Below are positions 50,772 to 54,870 of a stretch of 64,000 nucleotides of DNA, piece by piece; the stretch's first letter is position 1, and each line of letters starts with the position of its first letter. The DNA lies in assembly GCF_057098645.1 (NCBI RefSeq), contig NZ_CM169472.1; one strand, given 5' to 3'. The notes beneath the pieces are model-generated. The model had not been told where the DNA came from. It did not search any database and worked only from the letters and a program-made list of their open reading frames with translations. Made by a program: the position numbers and the translations under genes.

Positions 50772-52289
50772 TTAAGGTAGCGTCTTATACATCGGGACAT
50801 AACCTACATCTTCCACCAAACTCTGCCCCTGCGGCGTTAAAAACCATTCCACCAATTTTTGTGTCTCTGACGTCGTATTTTCCCTCGTTACCATAAAGGC
50901 ATCGACGATATAGGGATATTTGCCGTTGCGAATATTTTCCGCAGTCGGTGCAATACCGTTAATCGCTAGCAGTTTTATATTTTTATCGGCGTTCATTTGT
51001 GTTGCGTAATAACGGAAGGTGTAACCTATTGCGTTGTTTGTATTACGATATTCGGCAACGACTTTAATCATTCCCTCCATTACGCTTGCCACTTCGGTTT
51101 CCTGCGGCGAGATCATGCGGACATTTTTCATGACCTGTGATTGCATCACTGTCTGGCTGCCAGAGTCTTCCGGGCGCTGCCAGGTCTGGATCTCCTGATC
51201 GTTACCGCCAACAGTACGCCAATTGGTAATTGCACCACTGAAAATGTCACGCACCTGTTGTTCAGTCAGGGAATTAACCGGATTATCCGCATTGACGATG
51301 AAAACGAATGCTTCACGGGCAAAGGGGGTGTACAGCAAAGTGACACCAGATTCCTTTGCACGTTTTTTTTGCCCACCGGAAGGTTGCGCCACGAAAATAA
51401 TATCAGCATCGCCCTTAACGATTTTGTTATATGCTTCTGGCGTACGAGAGTTTTCCAGATAATCCCAAACGTGAAAATCCTCTGGTATTACACTTAATGC
51501 ATAAAATGCAGAAGCATAAATTGGGTACGCAGCCGTGGCGCCATCGATTCGCGGCCAGTTTTGCCTAAACTGAATTTGCGGTTTGCCACGCAGCGGCGTC
51601 AGTCGATTATTGAGTTTATCGGGTTGCCAGGCCCAGATATCAATATTTTCGCGTACACCGACACCAGGATTGAGCTGTTTATATAAATAACCCTGATAAC
51701 CAGCGACAAAACCAAGCATGAGAAGGATAAACAGGAGGGAATTACGGCAACGTAGCCCGGATGTACCGGTTAAAGGATGTCTGGTTGGCCGGCCGTACCC
51801 CAGCGAAAAACTGATATGCGCGCCAACGGGTATAATGACTATCCACCAGTACTCACCTCCGACTACTGAGACTAACAAAACGCCCAGCCAGGGGAGCATA
51901 AGATCAGCCAACCAACCCGATCCCATCTGGTGAAATTGATAATCTGCCAGATGCAGCGCGATTATCCAGCCAACCAGGATTAATAAAGCGGGTACTAAAA
52001 AAAGACATTGTCGCCAGACGGCTATTTCTCTTTTTTCTGGTGCACTATCGCCTGCCCATACTCGCCCCGAGAAAAATAGCATTAATGCGCCCAGCGCCAG
52101 CATAAAAATGTTGAGCAGAAGGTAAATTGTTGGCGTGATAAGGATATTACAAACTTCAATAATACCGGCAAGTCCGACACCCAGCATAGCAACAACCGCC
52201 GCCAAAAATTGCGTCAGTATGGGGATGCCGAAAAAAGTCATTACCAGCGAGGACAAAATCCATTTTCTGTTTTGCATTATTCTTTCCAT
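50772..52289 (-). CDS. Membrane-anchored PstS-like (PBP type 2) substrate-binding domain protein (gene 1 of accessory operon)
   Basis: 505 aa ORF: N-terminal ~240 aa with ~6 hydrophobic helices, C-terminal ~260 aa resembling phosphate-binding-protein folds (AAYPIYASAF..., LTEQQVRDIFSGAITNWRTVGG..., EDSGSQ, AIGYTFRYYA, INGIAPTAENIRNGKYPY...). Start may be the Met at 52277. Confidence 0.7.
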   Translation of the reverse strand: MERIMQNRKWILSSLVMTFFGIPILTQFLAAVVAMLGVGLAGIIEVCNILITPTIYLLLNIFMLALGALMLFFSGRVWAGDSAPEKREIAVWRQCLFLVPALLILVGWIIALHLADYQFHQMGSGWLADLMLPWLGVLLVSVVGGEYWWIVIIPVGAHISFSLGYGRPTRHPLTGTSGLRCRNSLLFILLMLGFVAGYQGYLYKQLNPGVGVRENIDIWAWQPDKLNNRLTPLRGKPQIQFRQNWPRIDGATAAYPIYASAFYALSVIPEDFHVWDYLENSRTPEAYNKIVKGDADIIFVAQPSGGQKKRAKESGVTLLYTPFAREAFVFIVNADNPVNSLTEQQVRDIFSGAITNWRTVGGNDQEIQTWQRPEDSGSQTVMQSQVMKNVRMISPQETEVASVMEGMIKVVAEYRNTNNAIGYTFRYYATQMNADKNIKLLAINGIAPTAENIRNGKYPYIVDAFMVTRENTTSETQKLVEWFLTPQGQSLVEDVGYVPMYKTLP

Positions 52290-52306
52290 TCTTTCTGAAT
52301 GGCGAA

Positions 52307-52312
52307 ATTATA
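52307..52312 (-). promoter_or_regulatory. Candidate -10 hexamer (TATAAT) for the accessory operon
   Basis: Perfect TATAAT on the minus strand about 18-30 bp upstream of the two candidate start codons of gene 1; no good -35 seen. Confidence 0.35.
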
Positions 52313-52361
52313 CTCCCCGAGTCCCCTTGCCCCTTCTGGACACTTTTCCGAAATGATGGCG

Positions 52362-52388
52362 AAAAAAACGGGACCCTTTGGCCCCGTT
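52362..52388 (-). terminator. Intrinsic terminator of glgP (glgCAP operon)
   Basis: Minus strand reads AACGGGGCCAAAGGGTCCCGTTTTTTT: a 7-bp stem (one G-U pair) then seven T, immediately after the glgP stop. Confidence 0.7.
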
Positions 52389-52404
52389 CTATTTATTGGT
52401 GAAA

Positions 52405-54870
<2,466 letters not shown>

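Follow-up and report, generated by a model that had tools for sequence, protein, structure and literature searches.

The closest described system is the stretch between glgP and yzgL (b3427) of Escherichia coli K-12 MG1655, which is the same element as the one analyzed here: from the glgP stop codon to the yzgL ATG the two sequences are 97% identical, and hairpin (3564117..3564091), TATAAT (3564040..3564035) and ATG all recur in K-12. What differs is the downstream part. In K-12, an internal deletion has joined ~80 codons from the beginning of gene 1 to the final ~20 of gene 4, whereas the operon is intact, with four genes, in the window (the whole 64,000-nt stretch of DNA that we analyzed). 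The putative promoter therefore precedes only a remnant in K-12, but a four-gene operon in the window. We know of no promoter described for yzgL, nor of any report of a gene 1 promoter.

Two broader classes invite comparison. Bidirectional terminators, such as the one between can and hpt (PMC6131387), also consist of a palindrome between an A-tract and a U-tract, and also produce 3' ends on both strands with partial read-through. Unlike in the can/hpt type, the flanking operons here run in the same direction, and the stop on the opposite strand acts on antisense or glpD read-through RNA rather than on the transcript of a convergent gene. The second class comprises sigma-70 promoters without a -35 element, either UP-dependent (rrnB P1 type) or activator-dependent (e.g. 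PhoB). A strong -10, the lack of a usable -35, a conserved AT-rich element directly ahead of the -35 position and an apparently low basal activity are common to these promoters and to our locus, which differs from them by its mismatches to the UP consensus (5/14), by a proximal match that is shifted by 3 bp, and by having no pho box, no CRP, FNR or CpxR site and no TGn.

The window stems from an E. coli chromosome; O145:H28 strains are 100% identical to it over a 301-nt query that spans the feature. On the minus strand, glgX-glgC-glgA-glgP (glgP 52405..54852) are followed by a gap of ~125 nt, by four close-packed genes (gaps of 15, 2 and 2 nt), and by the convergent glpD. The coding features next to the gap are these:

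52407..52405, minus strand: stop codon TAA of glgP
50772..52277, minus strand: gene 1, PstS-family binding domain (PF12849, E = 7e-31) with an N-terminal multi-span membrane domain
50046-50756, minus strand: gene 2, 236 aa, DUF4279-like
49276-50043, minus strand: gene 3, 255 aa
48674-49273, minus strand: gene 4, 199 aa, predicted to be membrane-embedded from its hydrophobic sequence

Genes 2-4 (48674..50756, minus strand) would share the putative promoter of gene 1. Scans of the operon proteins with PADLOC for anti-phage defence and against NCBIfam returned the PstS family assignment and nothing further. The membrane domain of gene 1 (51558-52277) and the gene 4 protein (48674-49273) are weakly similar (29% over 73 aa, E = 0.012), and a motif ending in GY is common to gene 1 (SFSLGY) and gene 4 (GFALGY). 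REP-like palindromes are found at 48520-48640, in the interval that separates gene 4 from the convergent glpD terminator. Gene 1 has three in-frame start candidates, ATG 52289, ATA 52280 and ATG 52277. Annotation by PGAP begins at ATA 52280, an artefact of alleles that read ATGATG at this point. Because a stop codon separates the upstream ATG from the main ATG in K. oxytoca, ATG 52277, which is also the start of K-12 yzgL, is the best-supported start codon judging by the comparison of sequences.

Transcription of the glg genes ends at the following elements:

52389..52398, minus strand: A-rich tract AATAAATAG, 5' of the hairpin; its plus-strand complement is a U-rich tail, UUCUAUUU
52367..52388, minus strand: hairpin with 5' arm AACGGGGCC (52388..52380), loop AAAG (52379..52376) and 3' arm GGTCCCGTT (52375..52367)
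52362..52368, minus strand: T7 (U7) tract directly 3' of the hairpin, invariant in Escherichia

The hairpin starts 17 nt after the glgP stop codon. Its stem has nine pairs, one of them G.U, and can be lengthened to eleven by the A and U tracts. For the 34-nt segment with the hairpin, the folding energy is -17.1 kcal/mol, compared to -7.2 +/- 2.3 kcal/mol for shuffled versions (z = -4.3, with none of 200 shuffles equal), and the terminator 27-mer is unique within the window, where no match would be expected. In eight Escherichia sequences (E. coli alleles, E. albertii, E. whittamii and two cryptic clades), only one of 17 stem sites varies, by a change from G.U to G-C, and none of the seven T positions does, while three of the four loop positions vary; for comparison, the per-site variation at third codon positions of this set is 0.44-0.53. 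When K. oxytoca, a second Klebsiella and Phytobacter were added for a pairing set of eight sequences from three genera (Escherichia, Klebsiella, Phytobacter), pairing was complete, with 80/80 sequence-pair cells paired. The changes in the stem are one compensatory replacement of G-C by A-U and the replacement of G.U by G-C; the loop varies in both sequence and length, one loop being extended from 4 to 7 nt. The covariation is modest, as 53 of 500 shuffles do as well.

Transcript ends have been mapped at this position in K-12. In two RNAtag-seq datasets, the glgP 3' terminus classed as “Primary” spans 3564085-3564095 and peaks at 3564089 and 3564086 (PMC10687069). We located the U-tract of the near-identical K-12 sequence at 3564097..3564091, and the mapped glgP 3' ends fall 2-5 nt beyond it. 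The 3'-end tables of Adams 2021 that were covered have no glgP entry. Hairpin and T7 tract together are a true intrinsic terminator of the glg transcript. The terminator also works on the other strand, since a K-12 plus-strand terminus at 3564123 (corresponding to about 52394 in the window) adjoins the same palindrome, directly after it and UUCUAUUU (PMC10687069), and since the A-rich tract flanks the other side of the hairpin and so enables it to stop plus-strand RNA as well. The published K-12 plus-strand 3' ends at 3563871 and 3564123 indicate antisense transcription across yzgL and the promoter region. The antisense RNA over yzgL probably has its source in read-through from glpD and its end at the glgP hairpin.

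Where gene 1 is the next gene after glgP (Escherichia, Klebsiella, Phytobacter), the same hairpin lies between the two, and other hairpins follow glgP in B2-type E. coli and in a Salmonella with an extra ORF. Initially we considered that the terminator might “belong” to the variable module, a question on which this distribution of hairpins does not decide. An automatic promoter and terminator scan missed both the terminator and the TATAAT, the former probably because the extension of the stem into the A/T tracts consumes the T run, the latter because the scan requires a -35. Its alternative promoter, TCGCCA-18-AATAAT (52305..52276), was rejected, because the proposed -10 overlaps ATG 52277 and AATAAT is not conserved in Klebsiella and Salmonella.

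Termination in K-12 is not complete. SMRT-Cappable-seq has extended the RegulonDB operon b3427 (yzgL) to b3428|b3427 (PMC6131387, Supplementary Data 3), so that primary transcripts must contain glgP and yzgL together. The terminator thus combines a strong 3'-end signal with listed glgP-yzgL co-transcripts, and insulation is leaky on account of the latter. A preliminary description of the region had regarded the downstream operon as apparently insulated in transcription, seemingly with a promoter of its own in place of read-through from the glycogen genes. The terminator is borne out by its conservation and by its K-12 3' ends, but as a leaky one; the promoter we consider very probable, because it is conserved in five genera and follows gene 1 (see below); the exclusion of read-through fails on the b3428|b3427 transcripts.

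Between the terminator and gene 1, the minus strand has the following features, some of them predicted:

52344..52354, minus strand: upstream motif ATTTCGGAAAA with dyad TTTC-G-GAAA, at -54..-44 from the predicted start (centre at -49)
52313..52343, minus strand: G-rich stretch that covers the -35 and spacer region, not conserved in sequence
52312..52307, minus strand: -10 hexamer TATAAT, identical to the consensus at 6/6 positions, beginning 49 nt past the last T of the T7 tract
52300, minus strand: predicted transcription start A, placed 7 nt past the -10 (3564028 on the minus strand of K-12 MG1655, NC_000913.3; 3562051 in U00096.2)
52278..52299, minus strand: predicted 5' leader, with the Shine-Dalgarno-like sequences AGAAAG (52296..52291) and GGAAAG (52287..52282)

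On its own, the hexamer predicts little, since, of its eight copies in the window, only two have a same-strand gene starting within the next 120 nt. By rough arithmetic, the probability of a same-strand TATAAT in the 72-nt gap by chance is ~0.4-1%; as about 50 intergenic regions of the window were inspected by eye, a single chance occurrence would be possible on these numbers alone. TATAAT is depleted in the window (eight copies versus 19.4 +/- 4.2 expected, with at least eight in 100/100 shuffles), which is consistent with selection against stray -10 elements. What settles whether the hexamer exceeds chance is not its statistics, but its conservation across genera.

Within Escherichia, GGAGTATAATT, which includes the -10, is invariant in the eight sequences, and its flanks vary at the neutral rate (13 of 23 sites in the spacer, 52335-52313, and three of six in the discriminator). 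Three of 20 sites vary in the leader, where a CAGGRA block is conserved across genera. For the wider comparison, we traced homologues of gene 1 with 47-55% protein identity to their contigs and aligned the upstream regions in blocks, which gave ten sequences from five genera (Escherichia, Klebsiella, Phytobacter, Salmonella and Intestinirhabdus). Upstream of the orthologous gene for the membrane-anchored PstS-like protein, the hexamer takes the form TATAAT, TATACT or TATCAT, so that positions 1, 2, 3 and 6 are invariant in all ten sequences. An A is found 7 nt downstream of the -10 in 9/10 orthologues, and TTTC-R-GAWAA upstream of it in 10/10. In 9/10, the C of TTTC precedes the first base of the -10 by 37-38 nt; the exception is Intestinirhabdus, where the motif is 12 bp, or about one helical turn, closer to the -10. 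The same arrangement occurs after an Fe-ADH gene and after a 174-aa ORF (both in Salmonella), and after the type VI secretion gene tssM (Intestinirhabdus). As it is kept where glgP is not the upstream neighbour, the promoter appears to travel with gene 1 and not with glgP. On this comparative evidence, we consider it very probable that TATAAT is a genuine -10 of gene 1.

The -35 element is missing throughout. At a spacing of 16-18 bp, the best match to TTGACA in the window is 1/6, and in the ten orthologous promoters it never exceeds 3/6 at spacings of 15-19 bp. An extended -10 (TGn) is absent as well; the corresponding positions read GAG in Escherichia and GCT, GTT, CTT or TCT elsewhere. A promoter with neither -35 nor TGn is intrinsically weak. 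On the plain facts of the sequence, the preliminary description was accurate: the hairpin with T7 lies exactly at 52362-52388, with K-12 3' ends just past a near-identical U-tract, the TATAAT lies exactly at 52307-52312, with its 49 nt from the T run matching the “about 50 bp” that had been given, and the lack of a -35 hexamer extends to every orthologue. The further suggestion that the promoter may need an activator holds as one of two options, the other being that the conserved T-tract/A-tract motif is an UP-like element.

The motif is a candidate for either an activator site or an UP-like element, and in combination with the -10 it forms a two-part pattern that is unique in the window. Compared to the full UP consensus (-59..-38), it has five mismatches at 14 specified positions; compared to the proximal UP subsite, it has two mismatches at eight positions (one in Salmonella), and it is displaced upstream by 3 bp. 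Inside the AT-rich motif are a C and a G that are both conserved. Consensus tests for PhoB, CRP, FNR, CpxR, GlpR, Fur, LexA, ArcA and PhoP gave no consistent match in E. coli, K. oxytoca and Salmonella. The PstS-like nature of gene 1 prompted a specific test for a pho box (CTGTCATAWAWCTGTCAY) at the position of the -35; the best candidates in these three have 7/18 mismatches and lie at non-equivalent positions. The G-rich stretch between motif and -10 has a composition of G ~0.5 and C ~0.15 on the coding strand in seven of the ten orthologous promoters. This conservation of composition without conservation of sequence (52313-52343) is not explained by a simple promoter model. A G-quadruplex in the spacer was considered and rejected, as there are just three G-tracts, which are not conserved. 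Likewise discarded was an 11-codon mini-ORF (GTG 52343 to TAA 52308), which has a frameshift in E. coli SCPM-O-B-8794 and otherwise mostly non-synonymous changes.

The unexplained G-rich composition, the dyad symmetry of the motif, as is frequent in operators, and the existence of co-transcripts in K-12 could all be taken to mean that the conserved blocks (TTTC-R-GAWAA, TATAMT and CAGGRA) act at the level of RNA or as an operator, for instance as leader structure or as a processing or protein-binding site, and that the promoter is elsewhere. We judge this to be improbable. The pattern of conservation is the one that contacts with RNA polymerase predict (hexamer positions 1, 2, 3 and 6, and a purine 7 nt downstream), and the upstream genes differ between genera, so that there is no common longer transcript in which an RNA element could act. 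Folding of the 121-nt intergenic RNA is unremarkable outside the terminator (z = -1.56), and an Rfam search of 52150-52480 found no family, only a CRISPR-repeat match below threshold (21.4 versus a cut-off of 35 bits) that we took as noise. The frameshift and the mostly non-synonymous changes in the mini-ORF speak against this reading as well.

A promoter that is real but read by an alternative sigma factor is about as improbable, in our view. The factor could be sigma-S, which tolerates the lack of a -35 and typically uses TATACT, the form found in Klebsiella, Salmonella and Intestinirhabdus, or it could be a factor not yet recognised, for which the upstream motif takes the place of a -35. 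In E. coli, however, the hexamer is TATAAT and not TATACT, position -13 is G and not C, and expression of the EDL933 gene Z4789 is not lowered but raised in an rpoS mutant. The consensus sequences of sigma-54, sigma-E, sigma-32 and sigma-28 were not consistently matched across E. coli, K. oxytoca and Salmonella (sigma-E has one near-match in K. oxytoca, but it is not conserved and lies on the other strand), and a distance of 37-38 nt is far too long for a -35 element.

Expression of the glg genes is expected to rise in stationary phase. Given this expectation, the behaviour of Z4789 in strain EDL933, with expression close to background and a roughly 2-fold increase upon loss of rpoS (PMC2907692), is unlike that of a pure read-through product of glgP. 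In K-12, yzgL is among the CpxR-modulated genes, with a 2-fold change (-2.0), and the glg genes are not listed (PMC2731931). The two array studies are a hint that the operon is under separate control. They bear on the possibility that TATAAT is not a working promoter at all, and that the operon is transcribed only by read-through of the glgP terminator, as a conditional extension of the glycogen operon. Such read-through, documented by the long reads that extend b3427 to b3428|b3427, could supply some or all of the expression in K-12, and the absence of both -35 and TGn, together with the location of most of the window's TATAAT copies away from promoters, fits this idea. Kim 2012 and Cho 2014 have no start entry near the hexamer (around 52300, or 3564028 in K-12), within the part of the published start site tables that was covered, some of which are from exponential phase only. 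Nevertheless, we consider exclusive read-through unlikely. It does not explain why the -10, the A at +1 and the motif at fixed spacing are conserved in five genera, including loci after Fe-ADH, the 174-aa ORF and tssM, and it would have to operate across a terminator with near-ideal features and strong 3' ends in vivo.

Together, our data suggest a model with a leaky bidirectional terminator, followed by a promoter without -35 that starts at A 52300 and is aided at the dyad (-54..-44), and we regard this model as a whole as probable. According to it, the hairpin and the seven U would end most glgBXCAP and glgAP transcripts, and also the antisense RNA on the plus strand, and some polymerases would pass the terminator into the next gene. 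This first part can be traced to observations: the hairpin itself, the 3' ends found in vivo in K-12, the pattern of conservation and the existence of read-through. Downstream, a sigma-70-type promoter with perfect -10 and no -35 would serve the four-gene operon, which would be transcribed from A 52300 after a 23-nt leader that ends before ATG 52277. The missing -35 contact would presumably be replaced by a factor at the dyad, either the C-terminal domains of the RNA polymerase alpha subunits, in UP-like fashion, or an activator. For this second part, we infer that TATAAT fires, where the start is and what binds the dyad. Expression near background in laboratory culture would follow from such an arrangement. 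More tentatively, TTTC-R-GAWAA may be the operator of a dedicated activator, with the G-rich spacer as part of the arrangement, that switches on an envelope module of Enterobacteriaceae; this is a possibility to which we give less than even weight.

The preliminary description had called the operon “accessory” and its genes “cargo”, which overstates how recent they are. A PstS-like module is present at the glgP-glpD junction of Klebsiella, Phytobacter and some Salmonella, and because the same junction is occupied in these genera, the “cargo” is an old, plastic module and not a recent insertion. Homologues of genes 2-4 are present in the Klebsiella and Salmonella modules. Among 5426 complete genomes, the terminator and promoter region is kept in 4021 and the body of gene 1 in 3363. 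The junction (48674-52404 in the window; loci L002, L003 and L004) is a hotspot of gene swapping, for which we saw four layouts: the four-gene type of the window, an O157 type with swapped middle genes and a second PstS-like gene, the yzgL remnant of K-12, with the deletion that runs from gene 1 into gene 4, and, in B2/APEC strains, a fimbrial operon, with homology stopping 4 nt after the glgP stop codon. O157:H7 (L004, 5081-5245) and the window are 99.7% identical at the 3' end of glgP, but only 86% between the genes and 90% within gene 1, a drop that places a recombination breakpoint at the glgP stop codon. Most E. coli alleles of gene 1 are only 90-95% identical to the allele of the window.

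The gene for the membrane-anchored PstS-like protein is found in tandem, in two or three copies, in Klebsiella sp., Salmonella and Intestinirhabdus (L017 320-7118, L021 460-5003 and L018 3501-6542), and the partners of the duplicated genes are DUF4279-like and YbbD_head proteins. In Intestinirhabdus, the PstS-like gene directly follows the type VI secretion gene tssM. The E. coli glgP/yzgL junction, complete with the promoter motif, also turned up in an assembly of Terrisporobacter mayombei, on contig NZ_JAHZMP010000174.1 (L011; 477 bp, 0.78x coverage), which is almost certainly a contamination of the assembly.

A terminator with a promoter downstream is ordinary operon punctuation, and the gain in annotation is modest: the glgP terminator had already been mapped in K-12, and the promoter is well supported by phylogenetic footprinting. 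For the operon 3' of glgP, which is present in ~60% of complete E. coli genomes, the analysis provides a regulatory region, with a terminator boundary, a -10, a predicted start, a leader and a start codon corrected to ATG 52277. In K-12, the pseudogene yzgL, which is in use as a “neutral” site for integration, still has antisense transcription, a leaky terminator upstream of it and a promoter that is probably functional. The short conserved upstream motif offers a handle for seeking the regulator of an uncharacterised operon. If it should be the operator of a dedicated activator, then the protein that binds it would reveal the inducing signal, and hence the function, of a module of membrane-anchored PstS-like proteins and swappable DUF4279-like and YbbD-like genes that is widespread in Enterobacteriaceae.
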